Assembly: GCA_963703285.1 (NCBI GenBank)
Contig: OY969807.1
Span: 960,001-1,024,000 of the forward strand
From: an uncultured Nitrososphaerota archaeon
GTDB taxonomy: Archaea; Thermoproteota; Nitrososphaeria; Nitrososphaerales; Gagatemarchaeaceae
Direction of reading: 5' to 3'
DNA length: 64,000 nucleotides
Position numbers and translations under genes: made by a program. Position 1 is the first letter of the stretch. The number at the start of each line of letters is the position of its first letter. Below the pieces are notes generated by a model. It was not told where the DNA came from, searched no databases, and saw nothing but the letters and a program-made list of their open reading frames with translations. Positions 4,142 to 22,853 of the stretch are shown piece after piece.

Positions 4142-4726
4142 CTAGTGCCTCTCCCACATGCCAAGACGCAGAATCCTCGCATCCGAGAGCCTTACGAACT
4201 GCCGGCGCGAGCCGTACCTCTGTACCAGACTCTTGATTCCATCTGTAAAGTCCTTTGCGTCACCGAGCTCTCCGAGGAGGTTCTTGTCGAAGAGGATGGG
4301 ACGCAGAGGGCCGCCACGGTGCCTCTTGGCTACAATAGGTGCGTAGCAGGCGGAATACTTCCGGATTAGGTTGTTGATCATCGTGCGGTCCACCACCGAG
4401 ATGTCACCGGGCACGAGTATGACGGCGTCCGCGTCGCTTCTCACCTTCGAGAGACCCTCCTTGATCGAGCCGGTCTCCCCGAGCTCGAGGTTCTCGTCCA
4501 AGACAGTTTCGCACCGATAATCCTTCAGCTCGCTCCTGACCTTTTCAGAGTCCGGTCCGACCAAGACGATGACCTGTTTGGCCTTTGAGGTTTGACACTC
4601 GTACACCACGTGTCCTATCATTGTCCTTTCCCCTATCTGCTCGAGCAGTCTGTTCGTTCCGGACTTCGTGTAAAGACCCCGGGCCAATACGATAACAGAC
4701 ACGGTGACTGGGTATCCTCTGCTCAT
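4142..4726 (-). CDS. MocA/MobA-like nucleotidyltransferase (Moco cytidylyltransferase family), divergent motif
   Basis: VIVLARG...RLL, GSIKEGL, ILVPGD, PILFDK; downstream of an XDH-family operon. Confidence 0.75.
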   Translation of the reverse strand: MSRGYPVTVSVIVLARGLYTKSGTNRLLEQIGERTMIGHVVYECQTSKAKQVIVLVGPDSEKVRSELKDYRCETVLDENLELGETGSIKEGLSKVRSDADAVILVPGDISVVDRTMINNLIRKYSACYAPIVAKRHRGGPLRPILFDKNLLGELGDAKDFTDGIKSLVQRYGSRRQFVRLSDARILRLGMWERH

Positions 4727-4791
4727 CTCTTCAACTCCGGCTCGATGACGGAACCTTCCGAACTCCCGCTCGATGACTGGAGCGGGCGCAG

Positions 4792-5033
4792 CTACAGAAG
4801 TAGGTGGAATGGCGATTCACCAGCATAGAAGATGCAGATGTCAGTGTACTTGGCAGTTTTCTCCCGATACTGAAACGGTCGACGTCGTTCTCCACTACCC
4901 GGCCCTTAAGGGGCTGGAAATCCTTGCCCCTGCTGGTCACCTCGGTTGCCACCCACCTGTCCTTGTACTTCTCAGAGATTTCAGAGAGAGTGAGCTCCTG
5001 CGGTTTGGTCCCACCTGACTCCCCAGATGTCAA
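4792..5033 (-). CDS. Small conserved-type archaeal hypothetical protein, apparent 1-nt deletion near 4866
   Basis: EKYKDRWVA...DVDRFSI continues in a shifted frame as EKTAKYTDICIFYAGESPFHLLL* (stop 4792-4794); GGAGAGG RBS. Confidence 0.55.
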
Positions 5034-5053
5034 ATCGCCTCTCCTTCCTCATC

Positions 5054-6133
5054 CTAGGATGAACTACTAGCAGTGACCGTAGACTCACTAGTGGTGACCG
5101 AAGCGAGTGGGGTGAGTGAGGTGACTGGACCGATTAGGCTGCTGAGGGCCTTCTGCACGACCCCCTGAGCGATGTAGACCCGGAAGGCGTTCCCCGTGCC
5201 CGTCGTCAGCGGTGTGGCGCCAGAGAGGGCCTTGGTGGCAGCGGCCGATATCACGCTCGCGTTGAGCTGCTGGCCGTTCAGGTAGCTCTCTGCGGCCGTG
5301 GCGCGGATGGGCTTGTTGGCGACCCCTCCCAAGACCAGCCTCACGTTCGAGGCGGTGGTCCCGCTCAGGGTCGCGCTGACCGCGCAGCTGGCGAGTGCGA
5401 AGTCGATCGCGCTTCTGTCGCTCGCCTTGTAGAAGGCGCTGACCGAGCCCGACGCTGGGGCGGGGACGTTTATCGAGGTCACGATCTCGTTGTAGCGGAG
5501 GCTGTTCTCCTTGACGCGGCCGTCGACGATGCTGACTCCCGGCATGAAGGAGTCCATCGACTCGGTCGTCGAACCCCCTGGTCCCTGGATGGTCACGGTG
5601 GCGTTGAGGGCGAAGAGGGCGGGCGTTATGTCGCCCGCGTGCACTGCGTAGCAGAGGTTGCCGCCGAAGAGGCTGTGGTAGTAGCGGTTGTCGCCGTTGG
5701 GTGCGTAGCAGACGTTCCCGCCGTTGCGCCAGCAGTCGTAGTTGTTCCTCAGGTACCAGCACCAGACCTCCTGGGAGATGTCGCCCGCCACGGTCGCCTG
5801 GTTGGCGATCTGCGCGGGATGGCCGGAGACCGCGCCGTAGAGCGCACCGTAGTTCGCCTTGACGTCGGAGTTGTTGAGCAGGTCTGAGACGTTGGTGGTG
5901 GCTCCTATCGTGAGTCCCGAGCTCGAGCTGTAGCTTATGCCGCTCAGGTTGAGCCCGGTGATGTCGACGACATACTGCGGCGTGAGGAGGTCGATGTGCT
6001 CCTTCATCTGGTAGAGTAGGTCGGTACCTCCGGCGATGACCCTCGCCTGACCGCCGTACTTGGTCAGGAGCGAGACCGCGTCACTGACCGATGTTGGCTG
6101 TAGGTATCCGAATTGCGCTAATTCGTTTCTCAT
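5054..6133 (-). CDS. XDH-family FAD-binding subunit with PaoB/YagS-type 4-Cys insert
   Basis: IAGGTDL, IGATT, QIANQATVAGD, CWYLRNNYDCWRNGGNVC...LCYAVHAGD, VRLVLGGVANKP. Confidence 0.93.
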   Translation of the reverse strand: MRNELAQFGYLQPTSVSDAVSLLTKYGGQARVIAGGTDLLYQMKEHIDLLTPQYVVDITGLNLSGISYSSSSGLTIGATTNVSDLLNNSDVKANYGALYGAVSGHPAQIANQATVAGDISQEVWCWYLRNNYDCWRNGGNVCYAPNGDNRYYHSLFGGNLCYAVHAGDITPALFALNATVTIQGPGGSTTESMDSFMPGVSIVDGRVKENSLRYNEIVTSINVPAPASGSVSAFYKASDRSAIDFALASCAVSATLSGTTASNVRLVLGGVANKPIRATAAESYLNGQQLNASVISAAATKALSGATPLTTGTGNAFRVYIAQGVVQKALSSLIGPVTSLTPLASVTTSESTVTASSSS

Positions 6134-6146
6134 CTGTCTTCACCAC

Positions 6147-8531
6147 TTAGAGTTTCCCGTTCGCCTGCATCCACTGCAGCGCGGCCACAATGTCCTCCTT
6201 CCTCATTGGGACGCTCGTGAACCTGTAGCCGCCCAGGGCGTTGCTCATCGCGTTCGCTATCGCGGCCGAGGTGGCGCACAGGGAGTCCTCGCCCATCCCC
6301 TTGGCCCCGAACGGGCCCGTCGGGTCGAGGCTCTCGTAGGGGAGGCACGTGAAGCTGGAGGGTGCCTGCATGATGGTCGGTATCTTCATGTCGAGGTAGT
6401 TCGGGTTGAGGTAGCTTCCGGAACGGGCGAGACCAGTCGTCGGGTCGTTGAGCACCTCCTCGAAGAGCGCCTCGCCCATCCCGAGGCCGATGAAGGCGCC
6501 CTCGAGCTGGGACCGGGCTCCCTTCGCGAAGACGACGCGGCCTATGTCCAGCGCGCTCACGACGCTCACGACCTCGGCGTCGGCGGTCAGCGTGTCGACG
6601 GCCACCATCGCGATCTTCGTCCCGGAGTCGCGGTGCGTGAACGCGAGGCCCGGGAACTCCGAGGGGGGCCCGTACCCGGTGACTGTGAGGGGCGCGCTGA
6701 GGAGCGCCGCCGCCTGCTGGAAGGTCATCTGGTTGGAGGGGTTCGTCGTGTCGTAGATTATTCCCGAGGGCTGCGGCGAGACGCTCCCGCCGACGCCGCT
6801 GAAGCCGGCTCCGATGCCACCGCCGAACGCGAGGTTGGACGCCTTGGTGCCGGGGGCCAGGGCTGCCGCCACTATCGGGAACCACGCGCGTCCGAGGGCG
6901 GTGGCGGCGGATAGCACCCCGAGGCCGCCGGTCATCGTGCCCAGGCTGCCGAAGGTGCCGCCGGAGTCAGAGGTGACCGACGTGTCGCCAGAGTAGTATG
7001 TCACGTTCTCGAGCGAGCTGAGTCCGATGAACTGCGCCGCCAGCAGGGGAAGCGTCGTGGTGGTGCCCCCTCCCTGGTCGGACTGTCCGTTGTAGATGGC
7101 CACGCTCCCGTCGGGGTTGACGGTTATCTGGCCCCAGCAGACAGGCATGTAACCTCCCTTGTTGCAGCTCTCGAGAGCCAGGCCGACGCCGTAGCGGATG
7201 GAGCCGCTCGTCGAGCTCGGGACGCCCCAGCCCTTCCAGAGCGACGTCCAGTTGAAGGCGCTCGTTGCAGAGTTGAAGACCTGCGGCTGGGGGAGAGTGC
7301 TGTAGGGCGTGCCGGCCACGGGGTCCGTGGCTGTGGCGCTCGTCCTCATGTTGTTGAGCCTGAAGGTGACGGGGTCGATCCCGAGCTGATCCGCGAGCAT
7401 GTCTATGGTCGACTCCATCGCGAAGTGGGTCTGGCTCTCTCCGACGTCCCTCATTGGGGTGCCCATGCTGTACGCGTTGGTGCTTACGACGTACTGGTTG
7501 ATCTCGAGGTTCGGGACGACGTACGTGTTGTAGAAGTCGTCAGCGCCGTCCGTCATGCTGCCTCCGACGGCGCCCATGTTGTAGTACATGTTCACCTGCA
7601 TCGCTGTCAGGAGGCCTGCCTTCGTCCCGCCGAACGCGCAGTAGCACCTAGTGGGGAACCTGCTGTTTGTCGAGCGTGCGTCCGCGAAGCGAGTGCCAAC
7701 CCACTTGACGGGCGCGCCGACCTTCTGGGACATCGCAGCGGCGATGACGAGGTCGTTCGCGTTGGAGCTGTTGCCGAACATTCCGCCGTTGGCGGAGTGG
7801 GTTGTGCCTCCGAGGGCCACCCTGCAGACCACGTCCGAGACCGGGATCCCGAAGTAGCTCGCCAGGCTAGACTGGTCGCCGAAGGCGTAGTTGGTCCTCT
7901 CCCAGACGTAGAGCTGGCCTCCCGTCCACCAGGCGACGCAGCCGCTCGGTTCGATCTGGAAGTGCTGGAGGATTGGGTAGTCGAACCTCTGGGAGACCAC
8001 CGCGTCAGCCGCGGAGAGGGCCGACGCAGCGTCTCCGTAGGAGATCGTGACCGGCTCTGGGCCCGTCAGGCTGTTCCCTCCCGGGTAGAGCTGAGGTGCG
8101 CCAGGCTTGAGCGCCTCCTCCGGGTCGAAGACGTATGGCTGCGGCTCATAGGCAACGTCCACGAGGTCGATGCCGTCCTGGACGGTGTCAGGGTCGGTCG
8201 AAGCGACGGCCGCCACCGGCTGGCCGGCGTAGAGGACTGACCCCCTCGCCAGGGGCAGGAAATTTCGACCCTGGTTAATGAAGTTGTATGCAGGCAGGTC
8301 GGCTGCGGTCAGCACCGTGTATCCCGCTGCCTCGGCCTTGCTCACGTCGATGCTCTTGATCAGAGCGCTCGGATGGGGGCTGAGGACCCTGCCCATGTAG
8401 ACCATGCTGGAGGCCCCGATGTCGCTTGCCGAGATGTCGGCGGTCCAGTGTCTCGTCCCGTTGATCCTGTTCATGAGGTCCTGTCTCGTGACGCTGGCGT
8501 TGCCGACTAATGAGTAGGAGGAGGAAGACAT
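6147..8531 (-). CDS. XDH/aldehyde oxidoreductase family molybdopterin-binding subunit
   Basis: SPHPSALIKSID, YAGQPVAAV, IEPSGCVA, DQLGIDPVTFRLNN, DQGGGTTT, GGTFGSLG, GPFGAKGMGE (catalytic Glu); ATG at 8531. Confidence 0.95.
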   Translation of the reverse strand: MSSSSYSLVGNASVTRQDLMNRINGTRHWTADISASDIGASSMVYMGRVLSPHPSALIKSIDVSKAEAAGYTVLTAADLPAYNFINQGRNFLPLARGSVLYAGQPVAAVASTDPDTVQDGIDLVDVAYEPQPYVFDPEEALKPGAPQLYPGGNSLTGPEPVTISYGDAASALSAADAVVSQRFDYPILQHFQIEPSGCVAWWTGGQLYVWERTNYAFGDQSSLASYFGIPVSDVVCRVALGGTTHSANGGMFGNSSNANDLVIAAAMSQKVGAPVKWVGTRFADARSTNSRFPTRCYCAFGGTKAGLLTAMQVNMYYNMGAVGGSMTDGADDFYNTYVVPNLEINQYVVSTNAYSMGTPMRDVGESQTHFAMESTIDMLADQLGIDPVTFRLNNMRTSATATDPVAGTPYSTLPQPQVFNSATSAFNWTSLWKGWGVPSSTSGSIRYGVGLALESCNKGGYMPVCWGQITVNPDGSVAIYNGQSDQGGGTTTTLPLLAAQFIGLSSLENVTYYSGDTSVTSDSGGTFGSLGTMTGGLGVLSAATALGRAWFPIVAAALAPGTKASNLAFGGGIGAGFSGVGGSVSPQPSGIIYDTTNPSNQMTFQQAAALLSAPLTVTGYGPPSEFPGLAFTHRDSGTKIAMVAVDTLTADAEVVSVVSALDIGRVVFAKGARSQLEGAFIGLGMGEALFEEVLNDPTTGLARSGSYLNPNYLDMKIPTIMQAPSSFTCLPYESLDPTGPFGAKGMGEDSLCATSAAIANAMSNALGGYRFTSVPMRKEDIVAALQWMQANGKL

Positions 8532-8535
8532 TCTC

Positions 8536-9327
8536 TCACGCACCTCCCAAGTTCGTCGCCGCAAGCTGTACGGAGGCGATTATGTTCAGATAGTTGCCGC
8601 ACCGGCAGAGGTTGCCCGAGAGCGCCTGCTGTATCTGCGCCACCGTGGGGCTCGTGTTCTGCTTCAGCAGCGCCGCGGCGGCCATGATGCTGCCGGGCGA
8701 ACAGAAGGCGCACTGGCCTCCGTCGTTCTGGACCCAAGCAGCCTGAAGAGCGGCGATCACCGGGTCAGCCGGCACCGCAACTGTGCCAGTCGACGACATT
8801 GTTGGGAGGCCCCCCTCGGTCGTCAGTATCGTGTGGCCGCCTGCCCTTATCGCCGGGTACTGGCACGCCTCGTGGGCTTCGCCGTCTATCAGGACCGTGC
8901 AGGCGCCGCACGCCATCCTGTTGCACCCCATCTTGGTGCCGACGAGCCCGAGGTCTTCCCGGAGAACGGTGGCCAGCATGTCTCTCGGCTCGACCGAGAC
9001 GGTGTAGCTGGTTCCGTTGACCGTGAACGTCACCGTCTGGGCGGCGAACGGGTTGGCCGCTGCAGCCGCAGGCACAGCCGGCACCGACGAGGTCTGCTGT
9101 ATGCCGCTCCCCGAGGTCTGCAGGACACCCCCTCGCAGCGCCAGGGCGGATACGCCCACGACGGCGCCCGCCGCCATGGTGCCCTTGAGAAGCGTGCGTT
9201 TGCTTACCTTAGTTTCCAAAATCTTCTCGACCGGTCCTGCAGACTCGCCGACCTTCTGGGAAGGTATCTTGTTCGGAGTGCTTGCCTTCTTCCGAACGCG
9301 TTTCGTACTTTTGTCAGTATCTGTCAA
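8536..9327 (-). CDS. XDH-family [2Fe-2S] subunit with Tat-type signal (PaoA/YagT-like)
   Basis: SKRTLLKG plus hydrophobic stretch; GTKMGCNRMACGACTVLIDG; GQCAFCSPG; GNLCRCG. Confidence 0.94.
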   Translation of the reverse strand: MTDTDKSTKRVRKKASTPNKIPSQKVGESAGPVEKILETKVSKRTLLKGTMAAGAVVGVSALALRGGVLQTSGSGIQQTSSVPAVPAAAAANPFAAQTVTFTVNGTSYTVSVEPRDMLATVLREDLGLVGTKMGCNRMACGACTVLIDGEAHEACQYPAIRAGGHTILTTEGGLPTMSSTGTVAVPADPVIAALQAAWVQNDGGQCAFCSPGSIMAAAALLKQNTSPTVAQIQQALSGNLCRCGNYLNIIASVQLAATNLGGA

Positions 9328-9360
9328 CGTCTGTCAACAATTGACTGTACTTGTCAACAT
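9311..9360. promoter_or_regulatory. Helically phased YTGTCA(AC) repeats plus GTCAA-N3-TTGAC inverted repeat
   Basis: YTGTCA at 9311, 9321, 9331 and 9351; inverted repeat 9333-9345; overlaps the start of the XDH operon. Confidence 0.55.
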
Positions 9361-9793
9361 AGACGTATTTGTCGAGTTCCCCGTATCCATTCGGGCCCCT
9401 CTCACAAATGAGACGAGAGGACTCGAGGACAACTAGCGGCAGGAGACCGTCGCGCGACCCGCTGTCTGGACGGAGCGCACCTGTATCCGAAGTCTGCGAG
9501 GGCAGCAACCGAATTGACCACTCCAAGCGAAAGGGCCTTCGTCTTGGTCTCAATCCTTAATCTGCCCAAATCGGCTCCCTTTGTGTCAAACGAGTCGCAA
9601 ATGGCCTTATCTTCAATTCCGAACACAAAAACCGAAAAAGGCTAAACACCGCCTAGTTTTCAAATCAGAGCTGTATCCTGGCTGTTTTCGAGTTTTCACC
9701 TAAACACATACCAAAGTTCTTGCCATCAACGAGCTTCTTCACCTTATCAGGTAATTCAATGGCGAAACATGAACCTCTTTCAAGAGCAGAGTT

Positions 9794-9988
9794 TTAGGAT
9801 TTGCGCTCCGGCATGTGCCATGTTCTGGTCGCCAACGAAGCGTAACGTTGGAAAAGAATGTGGGCCGGAACGGGTGTAAACTGTAGTAGAGCTTGGGTCT
9901 CCACTTCCAATTGCCAATCGTGCCACTGCTTGTCGACTTTCAGCGTCGGCCTCTCCTTGATGATTACTCTTGTAGGTTGGGTGCTCAA
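9794..9988 (-). CDS. Small hypothetical protein (64 aa)
   Basis: AAGGAG upstream of TTG; co-oriented between regulator and XDH operon; no recognisable motif. Confidence 0.4.
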   Translation of the reverse strand: MSTQPTRVIIKERPTLKVDKQWHDWQLEVETQALLQFTPVPAHILFQRYASLATRTWHMPERKS

Positions 9989-10104
9989 GCGCCGGCCGTC
10001 TCCTTCCCCCCTGCAACTCGCAAAATCGCCTACTGATTCTCAAAACTCTACGACACTTCGAAGGGGCCCGCCGGTGAACGACCTTCTTGAGGCGAACAGA
10101 CGAG

Positions 10105-10692
10105 CTATGAGACCTTTCTCCTTGAGGCTGTCATCATGATCGTCCCCCGGTTTATTTCGTGTTTGGCTACGTCGTAGCCGTAGCCGTTGAGAACCGACCG
10201 CAGGAAAGCAAAGGAGCACTCGGTTGATTCAATCTTCCTTCCAGCGCCGACTATGTTGATCTCCACCACGTCGTCGCCTTGCAGCTTGGAAACGGTGAAC
10301 CGTTTTATTGGGATCAGCAGGGTGAAGTCTCTTGCGAGGTCTGCGAGTTCGTTCAGGTCCTTGGCACCGGCCTTGAGGATACCAACGGTGTTACTCCCTA
10401 GCGCGGTGAACATAGCAAGCAGACCCTCCTTGTCCTCGGCGTACATCCTCGCGAGGATCTCGTCGACGAAGTCGGAAGGGAGGGTGATCACATCTATCTG
10501 CTTCATCAGGGAGACTGAACGCCATAGCCTGTAGAGCTCCGCGGGATCTCCGCCTTCTGCTGATATCTTTGACATCGTCGAGAGAGACTGGTTTGCGAAC
10601 GCAAACATGGTTCTCTCCCTTCGTTTTGCCTCGGAGGAGAACTCCTCAAAAATCTTGTGATCGATGAAGATGCTGGCACGCGACATGAACAC
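10105..10692 (-). CDS. Putative regulator (N-terminal ribbon-helix-helix-like), paralog 1
   Basis: RASIFIDHKIFEEFSSEAKRRERTMFAFANQSL; collinear and highly similar to 18554-19228. Confidence 0.75.
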   Translation of the reverse strand: MFMSRASIFIDHKIFEEFSSEAKRRERTMFAFANQSLSTMSKISAEGGDPAELYRLWRSVSLMKQIDVITLPSDFVDEILARMYAEDKEGLLAMFTALGSNTVGILKAGAKDLNELADLARDFTLLIPIKRFTVSKLQGDDVVEINIVGAGRKIESTECSFAFLRSVLNGYGYDVAKHEINRGTIMMTASRRKVS

Positions 10693-12052: not shown

Positions 12053-12469
12053 CTATCCGCCTGTCATCGACCCAAGGAAAGCCACAGTGTCTCCGTTCTT
12101 GAGCATTGGATTGCCTTGCGGAGGCGTTCCATTCAACAGAATCTGCATAGAATGCATGGTTTCTAATGCCGGGTGTTCCTGACAGACCTCTGTAATCAAC
12201 TGGGAAAGGGATGACGGGGCGGATATTTGCATGTTTTCCATGCTCGACCCAATTACACCCGCCATGCCAAGGTAGTAGACTTCGACGTTCAGGAAGAGTT
12301 GCGCGCTAAGGGGGGGACTCTTATCCGTACCTGATTGCGGTTGATGATTCTGTGAGAGGAAAATAAGCAGCCCCTTCGTGCCCAGCAGAGCAACGGATGC
12401 GCCGGCTGTTATGATGACCATCTTACCCAATGCTTCGCGCCTTGTTAACTTTGACAAGCTATGGGACAT
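12053..12469 (-). CDS. MoaD/ThiS/SAMP ubiquitin-like protein with N-terminal twin-arginine signal
   Basis: KLTRREALGK plus TM segment; VEVYYLG...ILLNG...LKNGDTVAFLGSMTGG ending in GG. Confidence 0.85.
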   Translation of the reverse strand: MSHSLSKLTRREALGKMVIITAGASVALLGTKGLLIFLSQNHQPQSGTDKSPPLSAQLFLNVEVYYLGMAGVIGSSMENMQISAPSSLSQLITEVCQEHPALETMHSMQILLNGTPPQGNPMLKNGDTVAFLGSMTGG

Positions 12470-12478
12470 CTCTCTCCG

Positions 12479-12979
12479 TTACAGAGTGAAAGTGCAATTG
12501 CCTTCGTTTGTGACCATCTGCACGATGAGTGACTGGTTGTTCGATAAGACGCCTAGGTACAGCGTGGCATCCTCACCTGGTAGAATAGTTGCACTACAAA
12601 GGCCGCCAGTGTCCATATTCCAATGCTGCGCCTGAGGGAATATGAGGCCGTTTGTGGGTGCTTCGCAGAAAGAGGAAGTGTTGTTGACCGCGAGCAACGG
12701 AACGCCCCCTCCGAGCACTCCTTGAATCAAGGGCTCCCCGTTCGAGATAACTTTGAGAATCGTCAGGTTCTCGTTTCCTAGGTTTGTCAGGGTCAGTGAA
12801 GGTTCGCTGCTGTTGCAACAATTGCCGTATCCCACTAGCTTGAGTTGTGGTGTGTTCTGACTCGCGGGTGGGTCCCCAGTGAAGTAAATCTGGGACAGCG
12901 TGATAGACGCGAGCAGCAATACCAGGGGCAGAACAACAACGAGCAGCTTTGCGAAGGCGCCAATCTTCTTATTTGTCAA
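12479..12979 (-). CDS. Membrane-anchored extracellular Ig/pilin-like protein
   Basis: N-terminal TM, LTLTNLGNENLTILKVISNG, several Cys; overlaps the upstream gene. Confidence 0.65.
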   Translation of the reverse strand: MTNKKIGAFAKLLVVVLPLVLLLASITLSQIYFTGDPPASQNTPQLKLVGYGNCCNSSEPSLTLTNLGNENLTILKVISNGEPLIQGVLGGGVPLLAVNNTSSFCEAPTNGLIFPQAQHWNMDTGGLCSATILPGEDATLYLGVLSNNQSLIVQMVTNEGNCTFTL

Positions 12980-13973
12980 CCTTAGCTCTCCTCTTTTTTG
13001 TTACAAGAACGTGTACCAGCGCGAACCCTATCACCCCGTAGACTGAAGCGAGGACCAAAATGAAAATGCTCACCACGACTGCGGTTGGGATGGGTGGTAC
13101 TCCTACCAGTCTGAGGTCGACGGAACTTCCCTGACCACTAACGTAGGGCGATGCGGAATCCGTCGCGGATGGATCGTTTTGAATGGCGGCAGTCACGTTG
13201 CTTGCCCCGTAGCTCTTGCTTCCCGAGTAGGAGGCGTAAAGGAGTCCTCCCCATTGGGAAGGCAACTGGTAAGTCAGATAGGCGGTGCCATTTGACTGAG
13301 TTTGGCTCGAGCCGATAGCCATTAGCCCGAAGTCGGTAGGTATGGAGAAGTCGACTTGAGCACCTGCAATGGGAGCCCCGTTGGAATCGGTCAGTCCAAC
13401 GGCAGCAAGAAGCTCGTCGCCATGAACGTTCATGGAAAGCGCGCTCAGTTTCGTACTGGTAGTCGTCGTACTGGTAGTACTGCTGGTGCTGGTGGTGCTG
13501 GTGCTCGTTGAGCTGCTGGTGGTTGTGCTGCTGCTCCCGGTTGAGCCGGATGAGCTAGTAGTGCTTTGTTGGGCAGGCGTTACGATGAACCAGCCGTTCT
13601 GCATGTTGGCCATTCCGAGACAGGGTATGATGCAGTGAATTCTGAATGTTCCCGCCGCATTCGCCGTAAATTGAACCACTGAAATCGGGCTCTGCGCGTT
13701 AAGAACCGCCGAGGTGACGTTGTATCCATCGACCTCAATTTGATGGGCGTTATACGGTACGTTGGTGTCGTTCCAGACGAATTTGATTATCACAGTGTCC
13801 CCTTGGGAGACCGGACCTAGCGTGAAGTTTCCCGATGTTCCGTTGAAGCCAGCTTCGCTCACGTAGACAGTGAAGCTATCCGTAGCGCTTGTCTTCTGAG
13901 CCGCGGTAAGATGCGAAGGCTGCATTACCAGCAGCAGAAGTACAAGCAGGGAGATTGTGAAGATTTTACGCGT
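12969..13973 (-). CDS. Membrane-anchored cupredoxin (CuA-like) plus Ig domain; probable ACG start
   Basis: HQIEVDGY...AGTFRIHCIIPCLGMANMQNG; S/T linker; C-terminal TM plus KKRR; signal peptide RKIFTISLLVLLLLV in frame upstream of the first ATG (13925). Confidence 0.8.
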   Translation of the reverse strand, partial: TRKIFTISLLVLLLLVMQPSHLTAAQKTSATDSFTVYVSEAGFNGTSGNFTLGPVSQGDTVIIKFVWNDTNVPYNAHQIEVDGYNVTSAVLNAQSPISVVQFTANAAGTFRIHCIIPCLGMANMQNGWFIVTPAQQSTTSSSGSTGSSSTTTSSSTSTSTTSTSSTTSTTTTSTKLSALSMNVHGDELLAAVGLTDSNGAPIAGAQVDFSIPTDFGLMAIGSSQTQSNGTAYLTYQLPSQWGGLLYASYSGSKSYGASNVTAAIQNDPSATDSASPYVSGQGSSVDLRLVGVPPIPTAVVVSIFILVLASVYGVIGFALVHVLVTKKRRAKVDK

Positions 13974-15924
13974 TTGTGTCCGCCTCCATGGAGTTTGCTA
14001 TCTTCATTAGCTTGGGAAGCGCGAGGTTCGCAAATATTGAGCATCTCCTTCCGTTCGACCACCACTGGAGCTGTCCGGGCTCGGCTGGTTGTCCGGCCTG
14101 TTTCGACGACGCTCGTGTGAAACCTGCGTGCCCTTCAACAGTTATCCTGTCATAGCCCTTTGGCAAAAAGGCGGGAGGACTATCGATGACATCCTCTTTT
14201 ATCTGAAGGATCGCGATATCCACACTGTCGGTGTAGATGTTGAGCGGTTCCATCGATTCGCTAGTGTAGAGAAGGCCGACCATGGCTCCGTCGGCGGAGA
14301 TTCTCGCTTCGTGAAGGGTAGCTCCTTCAGGAAGAGATGATGGAAAAGAAACGAAAAACGACGCCTTAGTCCTCGCTTCCTCCTGACTGATTAATTCGCC
14401 AATGCTGGACAGCTGCACCTTCTCTTGATTGATAGGCTCTTGACTGACAGAATTCGCGGTATCTTTGTTCTGCATATCAGAAGGAAGGAAGCTGAGAGCG
14501 GCGATCCCTGCGGTCAGCCCTACGGCAGCGACCAGGCCATTTCTGAGGAATGCTCGCCTTCCGGTGGATTGGGGCGCTTCAGGGTCGCTGCCTGAATAAG
14601 TTGCCAGCGCGGGTGGGATAATCGGCGCTCTAGCGACAGTGTCCCCGTCGCCCTCGTTGACCTCCCAGATTGAGATCATTGGTACTAGCCTGCTCACGAT
14701 AATCAACAGCAGAGCGACGCCCGCAAACCCAGCGGCGGTAACCGAGAGCTCCTCCCAAGAGGGAATGTAGCTCCCAACTGCATATGGCAACCCGAGCTGC
14801 GGAACAGCTAGGGCCGGAATCACTATCAGAAAACGTTCCAGCCACATCCCGATGTTTGCGAGTATCGCGGCCACGACTATCCAGCCAACTCTCCTCGTCA
14901 CAGGGAGCGATATGATTGCCGCGGGCAGGATCAACCCGCCCACCAACATGAACCAGAAGTAGGGAGCGTAGGCACCCGTGAACAACGACGTCAAGTATTG
15001 AACGTCCAACGTTTCAGAAGACCAAGAGGGTGCCATGTATTCACTCAGCGTGAGATAGATCATCGCCAAGTCCGCTGCAAGGAAGATGTATGCCAGATAC
15101 AGAAAGTGCTTAACCTCTATGTACCGCTCAAGGTGATAGAACCTGCGGAAAGCATAGACGACAATCAATATCGTCGCGAGGCCGGAGTAGACTGCACCCA
15201 TGACGAAGAATATCGGGAAGATTGTGCTGTGCCATTCGACCCTGAGGGTAACAGAAAACACCCAGGAGAGAACGGAATGCACTGTGACCGCGATTGGCAC
15301 GACGAGTATCGCCATAATCTTGATGGACTTGTTCAACCTGCTCGCCTGCTCGGCTCCGCCTGACCAGCCTAGAGAGAGCCTAGTGTAGAGCCAACCTCTC
15401 AGCTTTGAGACTTTCTTCAGGGAATCTCTGCAGATGGCGAGGTCTGGGATGAGTGGCAGGTAGAAGTAGAGCAAGCTCGCCACAAGATACGTAACTATTG
15501 CGATTGTGTCCCATGTTATGGGCGACTGTAACCTGGGGAAGATTAGGAGGTTGATTGCCCTCTGGGGCATGCCCAGGTCCAGTATTGGAAATAAGGCACC
15601 TATCGGGAGAGAGCAGATAGTTATCATCTCTGCGATTCGCGTTATTGGTCTCCTCCATGTTGCGTTGGAGAGCCTGAGGATTCCGGAGATTATTGTCCCT
15701 GCCATGCTTATCGCTATGAAATAGACGAAGTCGACTATGTTCAGGCCCCATGCTACAGGAAGCCTGTCTCCCGTCAACCCAAGACCGTAGACATACTCAA
15801 GGTAGAACGCGTAGAGGCCCCATCCTATCACCGCAACCAACGAGGTCACAATAAGGAAGAATCGAAAACCGTGGGACTTCAGAGGTCCCAAGATCGACTG
15901 TGTATCTTTCTCACTATCTGTCAT
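13966..15924 (-). CDS. NrfD/PsrC/ActC-family polytopic membrane protein with fused C-terminal extracytoplasmic domain
   Basis: WGLNIVDFVYFIAIS, WRRPITRIAE, DLGMPQR, SPITWD, VHSVLSW, WHSTIF, GMWLERFLIV; internal GRRAFL plus TM. Confidence 0.92.
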   Translation of the reverse strand: MTDSEKDTQSILGPLKSHGFRFFLIVTSLVAVIGWGLYAFYLEYVYGLGLTGDRLPVAWGLNIVDFVYFIAISMAGTIISGILRLSNATWRRPITRIAEMITICSLPIGALFPILDLGMPQRAINLLIFPRLQSPITWDTIAIVTYLVASLLYFYLPLIPDLAICRDSLKKVSKLRGWLYTRLSLGWSGGAEQASRLNKSIKIMAILVVPIAVTVHSVLSWVFSVTLRVEWHSTIFPIFFVMGAVYSGLATILIVVYAFRRFYHLERYIEVKHFLYLAYIFLAADLAMIYLTLSEYMAPSWSSETLDVQYLTSLFTGAYAPYFWFMLVGGLILPAAIISLPVTRRVGWIVVAAILANIGMWLERFLIVIPALAVPQLGLPYAVGSYIPSWEELSVTAAGFAGVALLLIIVSRLVPMISIWEVNEGDGDTVARAPIIPPALATYSGSDPEAPQSTGRRAFLRNGLVAAVGLTAGIAALSFLPSDMQNKDTANSVSQEPINQEKVQLSSIGELISQEEARTKASFFVSFPSSLPEGATLHEARISADGAMVGLLYTSESMEPLNIYTDSVDIAILQIKEDVIDSPPAFLPKGYDRITVEGHAGFTRASSKQAGQPAEPGQLQWWSNGRRCSIFANLALPKLMKIANSMEADTNA

Positions 15925-16712
15925 TGTGTATCACCCTTTGGAGGAAGATAGATGACCTGCGGAAGTGTACCATATTCTTCATTCAGTCTGTAAGCGCCCC
16001 GCTTCTCTATCATACCGCTCAGAGAGACAGCGACCTGTCCGTTGCTTATCACGTCCTGTGCTGCGTCTCCGAACCAGAGAGCGCTCATTCCTGCCGCGCT
16101 GCATGCGGCCACACACGCAGGGACGTCGCCTTCCGTGACCCTGTGTCTGCACCAAATACATTTTTCAGCTACACCCTTTCTGTGTGGGACGTTAGTGTCG
16201 GGCGAGTAGACAACGTTAGCTTCGTCCGGAGTCACGGGTGGGTCGAACCAGTTGAAGAACCTCCTTTCGTAGGGACAGGCTACAAGACAGTACCTACAGC
16301 CGACGCATCTGTCTTGGTCAATCAGCACGATATGGTCGTCACTGTAGAAGGTGGCTCCAACCGGGCAGACCTTGGCGCATGGGGCGTCTTGACAGTTCTG
16401 ACAAGGCACAGGCATGAATACACCACCGCCGACGTCGAAGACCTGAATCCATGCCTGTCTGCCATCATACTGCATTTCGCCATCCCACGCCGGTGGCACG
16501 TCCATTTCAGCCTGACAAGCTTCGGTACACTTGCTGCAACCATCACAGTTGTTAAGGTCTATGACAAAGACGTACTGCTTGCTCGCGTCTGAAGAGCTTT
16601 CGGAGACCGCTGCACTTGCTTTCGGGAGGAGACTACCGGACGCAGCGCAAAGCGTCAGACCTGCAGCGGCCGCCGAGGCACCGACCAAGAATTTCCTCCT
16701 TTCTGGATCCAA
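15921..16712 (-). CDS. NrfC/DmsB-type 4x[4Fe-4S] electron-transfer protein with Tat signal
   Basis: ERRKFL; CDGCSKCTEAC; CQNCQDAPCAKVCP; CVGCRYCLVACPY; KCIWC...PACVAAC. Confidence 0.95.
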   Translation of the reverse strand: MDPERRKFLVGASAAAAGLTLCAASGSLLPKASAAVSESSSDASKQYVFVIDLNNCDGCSKCTEACQAEMDVPPAWDGEMQYDGRQAWIQVFDVGGGVFMPVPCQNCQDAPCAKVCPVGATFYSDDHIVLIDQDRCVGCRYCLVACPYERRFFNWFDPPVTPDEANVVYSPDTNVPHRKGVAEKCIWCRHRVTEGDVPACVAACSAAGMSALWFGDAAQDVISNGQVAVSLSGMIEKRGAYRLNEEYGTLPQVIYLPPKGDTQ

Positions 16713-16739: not shown

Positions 16740-18272
16740 TCAAGCTCCTTGCTTGGTAGTCCCTCTGCGCAAAGCCATGAACGACGTGCCAATGGCAATG
16801 ATGGCTATGAGCGCGGCAATTGCACCAACAATCAGACCTGTTGTGTCAGTTGTGTCGGACGATGTTGTTGTCTGAGCAACGGTCGTCGTCACGAGCACAA
16901 ATGTTGTTGTCTGGGCTACGGTCGCTGTCTGAGTTATGGTTGTTGTCTGAGGTACGGTCGCTGTCTGAGTTATGGTTGTTGTCTGAGGTACGGTCGCTGT
17001 CTGAGTTATGGTTGTTGTCTGAGGTACGGTCGCTGTCTGAGTTATGGTTGTTGTCTGGGCTACGGTCGTTGTTGTTACGCTACTGATGGTAATCACTGTG
17101 CCGGAAATCGGAACTTTCACAGTCGAGTCCATCACGTTTCCGCCCACTGAGGTACTATTTGCATTGATTATGTCGATGCCGTAGTACTCGTTGTGGAAGC
17201 TGTTGTCAGTAATCAGTGAATTCACCACCGCAACAGACTTCAAGGTGGATTCTCCGCCCACGATTATTCCACTTAGCGTTGGAGCGGAGCCGTCATTGCT
17301 GAGCACATTCCCGCTGATGATCTCATCCTTGTTTACGGCTCCAGCCGCATTCGCATGCAGAATGATGCCGCCCTCCCCTGTGTTGACGACTGTATTCGAG
17401 AGGACACTACTGCCTGATACTTGTGTATTGGCGTCATCAGCCGCTACAACTATGCCCGCAATATCGTCTACTACCATGTTGTTGCTGATTATGGTGTTCG
17501 ATACTCCCTCGCCCGGGTCATAGGCAGAAAGGACGATGGAGCAGGCGCCGGTGTTGTCTATGTCCGAGTTGCCGGTGATGATGTTACCATTAGCTGGATT
17601 TGGAGTCCCGGTTGGAATGCCCGCGCTAGGTATTGCAGTACTGTTCCAGGAGGGGTCAACTGCCCCATCGTCGTCGACGCCTATTCCTCCGGCGTAATTT
17701 CCTATCACGGTGTTGTCAGCTACCGTGGAGTTCGAGGTGCCTGTCAGCTCGATCGCCTTATTTTCGTCAATCGTAGAAAGGGGAGTCACACCATTGCCAG
17801 TAACTACATTGTCTTGGATTGCTACACCAGAGCTATCCTGTACATAGACGCCATGGTTGTTTGCGTTCTCAACCGTAAGGCCTTGAATTACCGACCCGGC
17901 TGCCGTAGAACCGAATATGGCAATCCCATTAGGCTGACCAGCCGCGTTGATGATTGTATTTGATGGCTCTGAGCTTTGAGATTCGAGCGCAAGTTTCTTC
18001 GAAATCGTCACCATCTCGTTGTATGCGCCAGGAAGGACAATGATGGTAGCACCAGTAGGTGCGACCGAGACCGCGTGAGAAATTGTCGCGTAGGGGCTAG
18101 CGAGGGTACCCGTCCCACTTGTATTGCTGCCCGTCGTGCTTACGTACAGTACAGTTGCCGCAGCACTTGCGGGCCGGACAAGAAGAACGCCGGCCGAAAA
18201 AGCAAAGAGGAGAATTAAGCATACTACTACGGGCATTGTTGTGCGTATATGCGGCTTCACGTTCTGGTGCAT
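16740..18272 (-). CDS. Secreted right-handed beta-helix protein (NosD/pectin-lyase-like) with Thr-rich stalk and C-terminal anchor
   Basis: Signal peptide; LYVSTTGSN..GT..SPYATISHAV; repeated IxxNxxxxN turns; C-terminal TM. Confidence 0.85.
   Translation of the reverse strand: MHQNVKPHIRTTMPVVVCLILLFAFSAGVLLVRPASAAATVLYVSTTGSNTSGTGTLASPYATISHAVSVAPTGATIIVLPGAYNEMVTISKKLALESQSSEPSNTIINAAGQPNGIAIFGSTAAGSVIQGLTVENANNHGVYVQDSSGVAIQDNVVTGNGVTPLSTIDENKAIELTGTSNSTVADNTVIGNYAGGIGVDDDGAVDPSWNSTAIPSAGIPTGTPNPANGNIITGNSDIDNTGACSIVLSAYDPGEGVSNTIISNNMVVDDIAGIVVAADDANTQVSGSSVLSNTVVNTGEGGIILHANAAGAVNKDEIISGNVLSNDGSAPTLSGIIVGGESTLKSVAVVNSLITDNSFHNEYYGIDIINANSTSVGGNVMDSTVKVPISGTVITISSVTTTTVAQTTTITQTATVPQTTTITQTATVPQTTTITQTATVPQTTTITQTATVAQTTTFVLVTTTVAQTTTSSDTTDTTGLIVGAIAALIAIIAIGTSFMALRRGTTKQGA
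16905..17070. repeat. 36-bp coding tandem repeat (QTTTITQTATVP, about 4 copies)
   Basis: gttatggttgttgtctgaggtacggtcgctgtctga units; no spacers. Confidence 0.9.
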
Positions 18273-18553: not shown

Positions 18554-19228
18554 CTAGGATAACCTTCTCTTGGAGGCCCTCACCATAATCGTGCCTATGT
18601 TTATGTCGTGGTTCGTCACCGTATACCCGTAACCATTGAGAATAGACTGTAGGAAGACGAATGAGCACTCGGTAGACTCTATCCTTCTTCCGGCCCCAAC
18701 GATCCCAATCTCTACGGAGTCATCTTTTTGGGACTGAGATATCTTGAACTGCTTTATGGGCAGGAGCGCAGTGAAATCTGTTGCGAGAGCCGCGAGTTCG
18801 CTGAGGTCCTTGGCGCCAAATTTGAGGACTCCAACCAACTCGCTCCCCAGGTCGCTAAACATCTTGAGGAGGCCTTCCTTATCCGATGCGTACTCCCTCG
18901 CAATCAGCCTGTCCACGAAATCTGACGGAAGGGTAATGATGTCTGTCTGCTTCAGCAGGGCGATGGAGCGCCAGAACTTATAAAGGTCTGAAGGCTCTCC
19001 CCCCTCTGCGGTTATCTTCGCCATCGCAGATAGTGACTCGTTCGCGAACGCGAACAAGGTCTTGTCCTTTCGCTTCGCTTGAGCGGAGAACTCTTCGAAG
19101 ACGGCTTGATCCACCGAGAGATTAACCCGCGCCACGAACCCCTTGTGTCGCGAAACCGTGGATTTATCGATATCCTCGCCAGTAGTTCCGGGTTCACCTT
19201 CCGATATTTGCCCGGCAACTTCGGTCAT
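18554..19228 (-). CDS. Putative regulator (RHH-like), paralog 2
   Basis: RVNLSVDQAVFEEFSAQAKRKDKTLFAFANESL...ITLPSDFVD...GAGRRIESTECSF. Confidence 0.75.
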   Translation of the reverse strand: MTEVAGQISEGEPGTTGEDIDKSTVSRHKGFVARVNLSVDQAVFEEFSAQAKRKDKTLFAFANESLSAMAKITAEGGEPSDLYKFWRSIALLKQTDIITLPSDFVDRLIAREYASDKEGLLKMFSDLGSELVGVLKFGAKDLSELAALATDFTALLPIKQFKISQSQKDDSVEIGIVGAGRRIESTECSFVFLQSILNGYGYTVTNHDINIGTIMVRASKRRLS

Positions 19229-21575: not shown

Positions 21576-22853
21576 TCAGAGGTTCTGTCGACTCTTCGGG
21601 TGATCGACGGGTGCGTTAACCGTCGGGCGACGAGCCAACTTCGAGGCATCGACTCTGAGGATTACCGTCTTCGTCGGGTTCCCCTTCATTGCTTCATCTG
21701 CCCCGCCTTTCTCCTCGGCGAGAACCAGCGGTCGTTGCTCGGGATTCTCTGGCTTTGGAAGGGAACTTGCGAGCCTTGCCAGCCCCCTGTCGGATAGGTT
21801 GATTCCGACATTCACATCTCTGTCTATCCACGCCTTACATGTCTGGCACCACAGCATCCTCCTGTGCACGGCATCTCCCCTCTCAGGGTCGTGGAGCTTC
21901 TCCCCACACGCCCAGTGCACCGATGAGGACCCCCTGGTTTCAGACTTCGTAAGCGATATTACAGCGACGCCCTTCCACGCTGCCTTGTACTCGATCATCT
22001 GCTTCGCCCTCCTGTGAGGCCACGAGTTTAGTCTGAACCTGTAATCCGGACCCTGCCCATTTCCTTTCCCGTACATCCTCCTGATGTTGGTGATGTCCTC
22101 GAGAGCCAACGCGGCGCCATCCCTCATCGCGGTATCGACCATGAAGTTCGTGGCGGCGTGGAGCAGCTGGTCAGTCCTATGTGTCGCCCTTCTCCAGCAC
22201 CTGCGAGCGAGGTTCCTCCTCACGCGCACATCGTTCCTCCTGAACGAGCTGACGATCTCTCTGGTCGTCCGCCTGATCTTCACGGCCTTGGTCATGTCGA
22301 CCTGCACGATTCCCCCTCGGTTTCCGAACGTCAGGTTCTTCTCGTTCCTGTCCACACCGAAGACGGTCCTGATCGGCACCTCTCCGACCTCCTCCGAATA
22401 GCAGAACGAGAGCGACCCGGGTGTTATCGTGAGACTTCTGAGCTTCTTCGCAGTAATCTTCGTTACGACATACCTGTTGAGCTGGATGTCGAAATACCTT
22501 TCGCGTCTGAGCGGGATGAAGAACCGACCTTTCATCGTGACGAAGAATCCAGAGATGATGCAGATCGTCGGCCTGAGAGGCTTCGGATGCCGTATCTGAG
22601 TTCCTCTGTCATCGCTCTTCTTCCTGCTCTTCACCACCGCGCAGGCCCTGGTAATCGCGGCGACCTTGTAGCAGGATGGAAGCTCGACATCCTTGAGCGA
22701 GCGATAGAATCTCTTCATCCCCTTCCGGTTCTCGATTCCTTTCTCCTTCGCGTAGGCGATTGCGTTGTAAGTGACCGTGAGACATTGGCAAAGGAGATTG
22801 TGCAGCCCGTCCCCTCCGTCATATGACTGCGCGACGCACTTCGTTCCGAGCAA
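21576..22853 (-). mobile_element. tnpB: Solo TnpB (IS1341-type, IS200/IS605 family) RNA-guided nuclease; no TnpA
   Basis: RuvC-I FGVDRNE, RuvC-II LALEDI, HWACG...CQTC zinc finger, RuvC-III DRDVNVGINL. Confidence 0.92.
21580..21790 (-). ncRNA. Putative omegaRNA/sotRNA overlapping the tnpB 3' end (boundaries approximate)
   Basis: tnpB tail (EAMKGNP...ILRVDASKL) typical of archaeal tnpB with overlapping RNA; terminal hairpin gtcga...tcgac. Confidence 0.55.

Follow-up and report, generated by a model that had tools for sequence, protein, structure and literature searches.

MoaD, ThiS, SAMP, and Urm1 are textbook cytoplasmic carriers whose C-terminal Gly-Gly end is activated with ATP, and twin-arginine translocation (Tat) serves as the route for proteins finished in the cytoplasm. 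Here we describe a MoaD-like protein of 138 amino acids, called Tat-MoaD below, that carries an apparent twin-arginine signal ahead of a ubiquitin-like (Ubl) domain. Its gene (positions 12053 to 12469, minus strand) lies in a 64,000-nucleotide stretch of DNA, the window, from an uncultured Nitrososphaerota archaeon of the Gagatemarchaeaceae, order Nitrososphaerales (GenBank assembly GCA_963703285.1, contig OY969807.1, positions 960,001 to 1,024,000). Coordinates are those of the window unless a locus (L) or genome (G) is named. We are highly confident that Tat-MoaD represents a real family of exported or outward-anchored MoaD-like proteins. This archaeal family is apparently new to the literature: a search of titles and abstract openings found no exported MoaD/ThiS protein, nor is one mentioned in the available portions of PMC2948915, PMC1779556, and PMC10640624.

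Tat-MoaD resembles MoaD and SAMP1 (PF02597) in its beta-grasp domain, in a Gly-Gly tail of the same length, in its best profile and structure matches (1vjk, 6jbz, 6jc0, and 3po0), and in the presence of a ThiF-family E1 in the genome. It differs from them in its twin-arginine signal or anchor and linker, its predicted outside location, three methionines, and its gene neighbors, which are copper proteins and not MoaE/MoeB or tRNA-thiolation genes. We favor, at slightly under even confidence for the reading taken whole, a role as a Tat-exported accessory factor of extracytoplasmic cupredoxin enzymes. To our knowledge, no dedicated copper chaperone for extracytoplasmic copper enzymes has been established in archaea. 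A conserved family that keeps Gly-Gly and has an export signal would move the ubiquitin-like fold, and possibly its chemistry, to the ATP-free outer face of the membrane, and its steady association, in abundant soil and peat archaea, with NirK-type copper proteins suggests an unrecognized helper for the assembly or operation of extracytoplasmic copper enzymes.

Gene, domain organization, and fold

The Tat-MoaD open reading frame (ORF) begins with an ATG 9 nucleotides past the stop codon of the upstream gene, preceded by a GGAGAG stretch, and encodes 138 residues followed by a stop codon. The N terminus reads MSHSLSKLTRREALGK; this n-region (residues 1 to 16; 12422 to 12469, minus strand, as are all parts of the gene) contains the twin-arginine motif T-R-R-E-A-L-G-K, with R10 and R11 encoded at 12437 to 12442. 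A 22-residue segment that is hydrophobic by hydropathy (residues 17 to 38; 12356 to 12421) would be either a Tat h-region or an uncleaved signal anchor. It leads into a linker rich in Gln, Ser, Pro, and Thr (residues 39 to 57; 12299 to 12355; SQNHQPQSGTDKSPPLSAQ), delimited from family alignments, in which its length varies and from whose Bathyarchaeia form it is missing. The remainder is a MoaD/ThiS beta-grasp domain (residues 58 to 138; 12056 to 12298) that includes M69, M105, and M108 and ends in FLGSMTGG directly before the stop codon (G137 and G138 at 12056 to 12061). The layout that a preliminary description had read from the DNA alone (TRREALGK, a transmembrane segment, a linker, and a beta-grasp domain with a C-terminal GG) is thus borne out in the complete frame.

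The fold was compared by profile and by structure. The Pfam ThiS model (PF02597) matches residues 82 to 138 of Tat-MoaD with an E value of 2.2e-4 and 22.1 bits, slightly short of its 22.5-bit cutoff; at E ≤ 0.1, it recognizes every one of 40 family members (best, 1.5e-11). Solved MoaDs are in turn matched by a profile built from the family (1vjk_A, E = 2.3e-12; 6jbz_B, 1.5e-10). An AlphaFold2 (AF2) model of the protein, with a predicted local distance difference test (pLDDT) score of 90 to 98 over residues 61 to 130 and a helix at residues 10 to 29, has as its top Foldseek matches the MoaD structures 6jc0_A and 6jbz_B (template modeling score, 0.83 to 0.84; root mean square deviation, ∼2 Å), and also matches SAMP1 (3po0) and Urm1 (2ax5 and 7q5n). 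The model and its matches place Tat-MoaD in the beta-grasp fold of the MoaD/ThiS superfamily. It falls far below the NCBIfam cutoffs for MoaD (TIGR01682, 20.6 bits versus 66.15; TIGR01687, 18.8 versus 49.5), and its relatives fall far below the NCBIfam SAMP1 equivalog cutoff (17.9 versus 60). Judged by these comparisons, Tat-MoaD is a MoaD/ThiS-type ubiquitin-fold protein but not MoaD proper.

Conservation and distribution of the family

Relatives were collected by a word-indexed search for close homologs and by an exhaustive scan of 1.84 billion cluster-representative proteins (hits at E ≤ 1e-3), whose 66 hits were all classified without selection. The word-indexed search returned seven relatives, 52 to 70% identical to Tat-MoaD. 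TRREALG is present in six of them, the seventh beginning within the hydrophobic segment; five have the GG end, and the other two deviate near the end in a manner resembling a frameshift or truncation. In the exhaustive scan, 36 of 66 representatives combine an N-terminal extension of at least 25 residues, a hydrophobic segment, the twin arginine (RR), and the GG end, so the two motifs that the preliminary description proposed to examine for joint conservation do co-occur in an unselected set. KR replaces RR in 2 more, and 6 others, probably cut gene calls, start within the hydrophobic segment. GG is missing from 2 that have RR and the segment (one of them frameshift-like, the other cut), another 2 with both RR and GG lie below the hydrophobicity threshold used, and 1 lacks the domain. 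The other 17 have no preceding hydrophobic segment (12 with an extension shorter than 25 residues, 4 with a longer nonhydrophobic one, and 1 fragment without GG) and are in part ordinary MoaDs and in part fragments with Tat-MoaD family motifs. An exact GG end is found in 61 of the 65 hits that have the domain, the 4 exceptions appearing truncated or frameshifted.

When 97 genomes from the organism's own family were searched with the profile, 14 proved to hold full-length copies, 15 in all; these matches (E, 8.8e-48 to 7.8e-29) start no later than profile position 7 and stand well apart from those of ordinary MoaD-type genes (E ≥ 5.5e-21, position 41 or later). RR is in frame in all 15 of these unselected copies, one of which (L055) has no upstream ATG, GTG, or TTG; loss of RR would have spoken against the preliminary description. 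Homologs starting at the Ubl domain would also have done so, and those recovered begin with the Tat-MoaD type of N terminus, apart from apparent fragments. These whole-genome copies and the classification of the 66 representatives are our selection-free counts. A maximum-likelihood tree sets 23 family domains apart from 7 ordinary MoaDs (support, 97/98) and groups the window's Tat-MoaD with L068 and two stand-alone copies from a second family of the order (99/99).

Full-length copies are unevenly distributed. Among 301 genomes sampled across the order, they occur only in the organism's family (9 of 74) and in a second one (3 of 13, with a further partial copy), with none in the 73 genomes sampled from each of the order's two largest families (0/73 and 0/73), and among 401 genomes sampled across the phylum, the only full-length match is in the window's genome. 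The bearers from the two families of the order are titled Nitrososphaerales or Thaumarchaeota in their records. Further copies came from a pattern scan of species-representative genomes with a smaller alignment (A5); the titles of their records name Thaumarchaeota, Nitrososphaerota, Nitrososphaerales, and Bathyarchaeia. Metagenome contigs contributed a single Tat-MoaD locus, and an earlier contig scan built on close homologs only had given no match. Public annotation of family members reads "molybdopterin converting factor small subunit" or "ThiS family domain-containing protein," or is lacking. We found no fused longer forms (304 to 2,000 amino acids), which is weak evidence.

Two Tat-MoaD contigs (L085 and L088) are titled as an acidobacterial metagenome-assembled genome (MAG). 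L088 has the same gene order as, and proteins near-identical to, the Bathyarchaeota-titled L087, and this equal gene content suggests that L088 is misbinned rather than the product of a transfer. Separately, a ThiS-like gene beside a plastocyanin-like fragment in the window's genome (G000:C1:1057456-1057677) was considered as a second copy and rejected, being of the ordinary 92-amino-acid cytoplasmic type.

Export signal and predicted topology

Features of the N terminus are consistent with Tat export. Across the family, the residues around RR tally as [S/T]-R-R-x-[L/A/V/F]-L-[K/R], several members having a textbook SRRxFLK/R, and Tat-MoaD itself has the S/T-R-R-x-F-L-K type of motif followed by an N-terminal hydrophobic region, as in Tat substrates. 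The genome encodes TatC (107.7 bits, above the cutoff). In 51 distinct sequences compared over 15 residues on each side of the hydrophobic segment, lysine plus arginine is in excess before the segment in 44 (means, 3.98 versus 1.75), which by the positive-inside rule predicts the N terminus inside and the domain outside, in keeping with the outward-facing domain of the preliminary description. The ratio of nonsynonymous to synonymous substitution rates (dN/dS) against L068, which is 56% identical, is 0.19 for codons 1 to 38 and 0.23 for the domain; these values come from one pair with pS of ∼0.6 and synonymous sites near saturation. As estimated from these codons, Tat-MoaD is under purifying selection along its whole length, N terminus included.

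Other Tat candidates, picked by eye from a rough motif scan of the whole genome for canonical motifs, comprise 2Fe-2S, Rieske, flavin adenine dinucleotide (FAD), thiamine pyrophosphate (TPP), metallophosphoesterase, and 4Fe-4S proteins and a signal-bearing subunit of the gluconate dehydrogenase type. Of all the picks, Tat-MoaD alone lacks a known cofactor; the use of Tat by such a protein fits a need for finishing in the cytoplasm, but fast folding of the beta-grasp domain would account for it as well.

The same evidence bears on whether the protein leaves the cytoplasm at all. Its N terminus might instead anchor a MoaD that faces the cytoplasm, or the true start might be Met17 of an ordinary cytoplasmic carrier, as could be argued from the near silence of the Pfam TAT_signal hidden Markov model (HMM) and from several representatives that begin inside or past the hydrophobic segment. 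Those short representatives, however, come from short contigs and look like fragments. Conservation of and purifying selection on RR and the n-region, the charge bias, conserved neighbors that are all extracytoplasmic, and a linker of the S/T/P/Q-rich kind common on archaeal surface proteins further argue against a cytoplasmic location, which we consider highly improbable.

Genomic association with extracytoplasmic copper proteins

We examined 24 Tat-MoaD loci, half of which (L044-L047, L049, L052-L056, L069, and L085) have a NirK-like multicopper oxidase (MCO) gene directly upstream on the same strand. These oxidases of 444 to 489 amino acids have Cu-oxidase domains (Cu-oxidase_3) and a C-terminal plastocyanin domain, with the NirK-type motifs HxxxxH (HSIDFH) and HC...H....M (YHCG...H....M), and their loci usually include a divergent HTH_10 regulator and often a hemerythrin. 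At one of them, L044 (G008:C3, positions 8513 to 10100), the oxidase is split into two overlapping frames by a frameshift or assembly error. The window and the Bathyarchaeia-titled L090 and L091 represent a second arrangement, in which Tat-MoaD lies beside a trio of genes for an NrfD-type protein, a cupredoxin, and a 166-amino-acid protein. Partial versions of it occur at L087 and L088 (beside NrfD and Fe-S genes), L068 (the 166-amino-acid protein gene upstream), and L048 (5 to 9 kb from such a cluster). In a third setting, L043 and L051, the gene is flanked by those for an ABC_cobalt-like permease and an S/T-rich protein, with Znu-type transporter genes close by. The copies at L070 and L071 are solitary, and L050 is at a contig edge.

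Among the 97 genomes of the organism's family, 18 encode a NirK-like MCO and 10 have Tat-MoaD directly after it; the core of the NirK-like oxidase was not found in the window's own genome. Neither at 14 relatives' loci nor in the window operon do the annotated neighbors include MoaE, MoeB, or other molybdenum cofactor (Moco) synthesis genes. Since Tat-MoaD is encoded beside extracytoplasmic copper redox proteins, it more likely serves these than makes Moco, and we consider a functional tie to NirK-type cupredoxin proteins probable.

This context does not sustain one use that the preliminary description had suggested for an exported carrier, delivery of a Mo=S ligand. The conserved neighbors are copper proteins (a NirK-like MCO, or a NirK-domain-1 cupredoxin with an NrfD/Fe-S module) and not a molybdenum hydroxylase. 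Delivery to the hydroxylase encoded 3 kb away in the window (4142 to 9327) was rejected as the main idea because that cluster is not among the listed or annotated neighbors at other loci.

Gene neighborhoods also bear on a purely structural role, in which the beta-grasp domain would dock as a subunit or tether in an extracytoplasmic respiratory assembly, the GG tail and methionines would make protein-protein contacts, and there would be no metal or sulfur chemistry. The operon with NrfD, Fe-S, and cupredoxin genes is conserved between the window's genome and Bathyarchaeia-titled MAGs, and the methionines, placed by inference from the fold, fall at the usual hydrophobic contact patch of ubiquitin folds. 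Structural relatives of the ubiquitin fold, however, generally lose the exact GG terminus, which is kept here at 25 to 40% identity. The occurrence of at least three different neighbor sets, together with stand-alone copies, is also easier to reconcile with a portable helper than with a fixed subunit, and on balance we find a purely structural role improbable. YukD/EsaB and RnfH, to which such a role would be akin in fold and function, are not known to be exported by Tat or to have a conserved GG. These ubiquitin-fold proteins belong to membrane machineries and are not used for conjugation, as described in the available part of Iyer et al. (2006; PMC1779556).

A candidate working face and the proposed accessory role

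Three methionines distinguish the family from ordinary MoaDs. M69, M105, and M108 are kept in 42, 44, and 44 of the 45 members of alignment A4, which was assembled from sequences with RR and GG (GG, 45/45), and all three are absent from 7 of 7 aligned ordinary MoaDs and from the solved MoaDs in the profile alignment. M69 lies just past strand 1, and M108 lies at the start of strand 3. In the standard beta-grasp register, relative to the last strand, strand 1 is parallel and strand 3 antiparallel, and because of this register the three methionines would cluster at the base of the C-terminal tail, at the equivalent of the Leu8/Ile44/Val70 patch of ubiquitin. Tri-methionine sites are usual for periplasmic Cu(I) handling, as in CusF, CusB, and CopC, and Cu(I) handling through this patch is the mechanism that we tentatively prefer, with some reserve.

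The comparison with small Cu(I) chaperones such as CusF, CopC, PCuAC, and AccA, the last specific for NirK in Neisseria, is instructive. Like these, Tat-MoaD is small, predicted to be extracytoplasmic, encoded beside a copper enzyme, equipped with conserved methionines as candidate Cu(I) ligands, and dispensable in some genomes. Unlike these, it has an unrelated fold, would use Tat and not Sec, and keeps a GG end of the kind that E1 enzymes activate; the likeness is drawn from sequence features and gene context.

The accessory role that we favor would proceed as follows. A MoaD-derived ubiquitin-fold protein would be made with an N-terminal twin-arginine signal and fold in the cytoplasm, and the Tat system would carry it, folded, across the membrane, leaving the domain on the outer face. 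There the hydrophobic segment, if left uncleaved, would tether it through a flexible linker that is probably glycosylated, or cleavage of the signal would free it, and it would act as a small accessory factor for cupredoxin-type copper redox proteins. In most relatives, the partner would be the NirK-like MCO; in the window, it would be one NirK-domain-1-type cupredoxin connected to an NrfD/Fe-S quinone module of the DsrOP-like kind. Most likely, the protein would work through the face where the C-terminal tail begins; M69, M105, and M108 would lie there beside the invariant Gly-Gly and serve for handling Cu(I) or for docking a partner.

Several points weigh against this reading. Four or five loci (L043, L051, L070, L071, and L048) have no adjoining MCO or cupredoxin, and 8 of the 18 genomes with a NirK-like MCO have neither a Tat-MoaD after it nor a detected full-length copy elsewhere; in one of these 8, the contig extends just 281 bp downstream, and several of the genomes are incomplete (set completeness, 62 to 98%). 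Judged by these genomes, the oxidase does not require Tat-MoaD, which would at best be an optional helper. Only 2 of 40 family members are matched by the Pfam TAT_signal HMM, and since it is mostly silent, we treat export and cleavage as predictions. Alignments A2 and A4 were chosen for RR and GG, so these motifs are bound to be invariant in them. That the methionines cluster follows from strand register and not from coordinates, and a ubiquitin-type hydrophobic patch could equally be a plain protein contact and not a metal site. More broadly, Tat export and outside topology are argued from sequence, and a function linked to copper proteins and Cu(I) binding is argued from sequence and gene context.

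Possible activation by an E1

The preliminary description stated that no E1 is encoded nearby, and this holds: the only ThiF-family match in the 2.25-Mb genome (C1:1428588-1429295) is more than 400 kb from the window (C1:960001-1024000 in the same coordinates). This sole ThiF-type E1 is fused to a ThiS-like Ubl domain in one 593-amino-acid frame (G000:C1:1428588-1429610). Such a Ubl-E1 fusion has been noted for Thaumarchaeota by Makarova and Koonin (PMC2948915, in its accessible part). Genes for an E1, rhodanese, JAMM protein, or cysteine desulfurase are not linked to Tat-MoaD at any of the relatives' loci that were annotated. By alignment, the Tat-MoaD tail is as long as that of canonical MoaD, and charging before export is possible because an exact GG end and a MoaD-length tail are what an E1 needs. 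That the single Ubl-E1 adenylates or thiocarboxylates this end before export is conceivable on these features, though we lean against it.

If it did so, Tat-MoaD could be an exported sulfur carrier, its GG adenylated and thiocarboxylated inside and the charged fold exported by Tat, with the thiocarboxylate serving outside as a one-shot sulfide donor or a soft copper ligand. The near-universal exact GG end among unselected hits, the canonical tail, the one ThiF-type E1, and the use of a route for cytoplasm-finished proteins when no cofactor is known all fit such a carrier. The copper enzymes in question do not call for one, however: NirK-type type 1 and type 2 copper sites and cupredoxins need no inorganic sulfide. 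A thiocarboxylate could not be recharged outside, because there is no ATP there, and no sulfur-mobilizing gene is linked to the annotated loci. Moreover, GG conservation could equally reflect a partner-docking tail, and fast beta-grasp folding would by itself be a reason to use Tat. An exported sulfur carrier is, in our view, unlikely; the Cu-S site raised in the preliminary description is conceivable.

Two known systems illustrate what such chemistry might look like. SoxY is similar in outline, being a Tat-exported carrier whose C-terminal arm, flexible and rich in glycine (GGCGG), bears the reactive group, but it has another fold and holds sulfur on a cysteine that is recharged outside, whereas Tat-MoaD has no conserved cysteine and its putative thiocarboxylate could not be remade there. 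Urm1, which is conjugated in a thiocarboxylate-driven, E2/E3-independent way (PMC9574740, as far as that source was available), shares the MoaD-like fold, and a precharged thiocarboxylate could react without ATP under oxidizing conditions; Urm1 is cytosolic, however, and no conjugation is known for the Tat-MoaD family. A ubiquitin-like protein charged inside and used outside, whether its thiocarboxylate and methionines capture and deliver Cu(I) or sulfide to NirK-type proteins or it undergoes an ATP-free, Urm1-like oxidative conjugation to surface proteins, is a long shot that, if true, would be the first extracytoplasmic use of ubiquitin/MoaD activation chemistry.

The window operon and neighboring genes

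Tat-MoaD is the last gene of an apparent minus-strand operon. The first gene encodes a secreted right-handed beta-helix protein (16740 to 18272; Pfam Beta_helix, 3.3e-12; NosD, 7.1e-7) with a weak likeness to NosD (NCBIfam NosD family, 39 bits versus a cutoff of 300). It is followed by genes for a DsrO/NrfC-like 4Fe-4S protein that itself bears a Tat motif, ERRKFLVG (15921 to 16712; Pfam Fer4_11 and others; NCBIfam DsrO, 175 bits versus a cutoff of 200), and for an NrfD/DsrP-like membrane subunit of the quinone module (13966 to 15924; Pfam NrfD, E = 5.2e-34; NCBIfam DsrP, 85 bits versus 350). The extra C-terminal part of the latter opens with a Tat-like motif inside the chain (STGRRAFLRNG) and also comprises a hydrophobic segment and a ∼190-amino-acid domain; from this arrangement the subunit looks like a fusion with a once-separate exported protein.

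Next is the gene for the 318-amino-acid cupredoxin (12969 to 13925, minus strand), which consists of a NirK-domain-1-type cupredoxin domain, an S/T linker, an Ig-like domain, and a C-terminal transmembrane segment. The profile of its family (A8) matches the copper nitrite reductases 6tfd_A (E = 4.1e-8) and 2dv6_A (4.2e-7), the protein aligns with domain 1 of the NirK-like oxidases (hhalign against the MCO alignment, 86% probability, E = 4.7e-6; also tblastn), and it is 40% identical to its L091 counterpart. The motif C-I-I-P-C-x-G-M is invariant in 5 of 5 homologs; across the cupredoxins of the window, L073, L074, L090, and L091, the invariant stretch extends to C-I-I-P-C-x-G-M-x-[ND]-[ML]-Q-N-x-W, in which there are two cysteines and the ligand loop is shortened, and this unusual motif may be a variant copper site. 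A signal-peptide-like stretch, WRRTQTRKIFTISLLVLLLLV, lies in frame directly before the ATG (13926 to 13990, minus strand), with no ATG, GTG, or TTG after the preceding stop codon; homologs bear N-terminal signals. The gene may use a noncanonical start, or the assembly may be in error here.

These N termini bear on the idea that Tat-MoaD is an escort that binds a partner in the cytoplasm and lends it the twin-arginine signal for coexport. Among the NirK-like oxidases, the position of RR in the N terminus varies and RR is missing in 2 of 9 aligned, as might be expected of partners that borrow a signal. Yet the oxidases, the Fe-S protein, and the cupredoxin homologs have N-terminal signals or anchors of their own, the in-frame stretch upstream of the 318-amino-acid protein gene also resembles a signal, and the N termini of oxidases with and without Tat-MoaD are alike. 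We regard an escort role as very unlikely. Tat hitchhiking itself is established, for example for PaoABC (PMC4273604, in the part available).

Directly upstream of Tat-MoaD, the 166-amino-acid protein (12479 to 12979, minus strand) has an N-terminal transmembrane segment and no match in Pfam or NCBIfam. Its gene is a conserved neighbor: a homolog lies directly upstream of Tat-MoaD in L068, further homologs occur in G011 and G021, and the 186-amino-acid neighbor in the Bathyarchaeia locus L091 is 33% identical.

A family of 195- to 225-amino-acid proteins with an invariant E-S-T-x-C (A7) recurs beside the MoaD-like gene and the NrfD/cupredoxin operons. Members are encoded in the window at 10105 to 10692 and 18554 to 19228 (both minus strand) and at L048:7369-7959, L056:5927-6526, L073:714-1325, and L074:2133-2810. 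The family has no relative in Pfam or among Protein Data Bank (PDB) sequences save a weak RHH_5 match in one of six, and may be a regulator.

A search of the genome for AmoA gave no match, but the control genomes were likewise unmatched, so this negative carries no weight. The hydroxylase cluster mentioned above (4142 to 9327, minus strand) is PaoABC/CoxSLM-like and encodes 2Fe-2S, Moco-binding, and FAD subunits and a MobA-like nucleotidyltransferase. A Tat-like KR motif (SKRTLLKG) lies in the long extension at the N terminus of its 2Fe-2S subunit, and three paralogous 2Fe-2S subunits elsewhere in the genome carry RR. Beyond the operon, a 425-amino-acid ORF (21576 to 22853, minus strand) contains a Cas12f1-like TNB domain and is TnpB-like.

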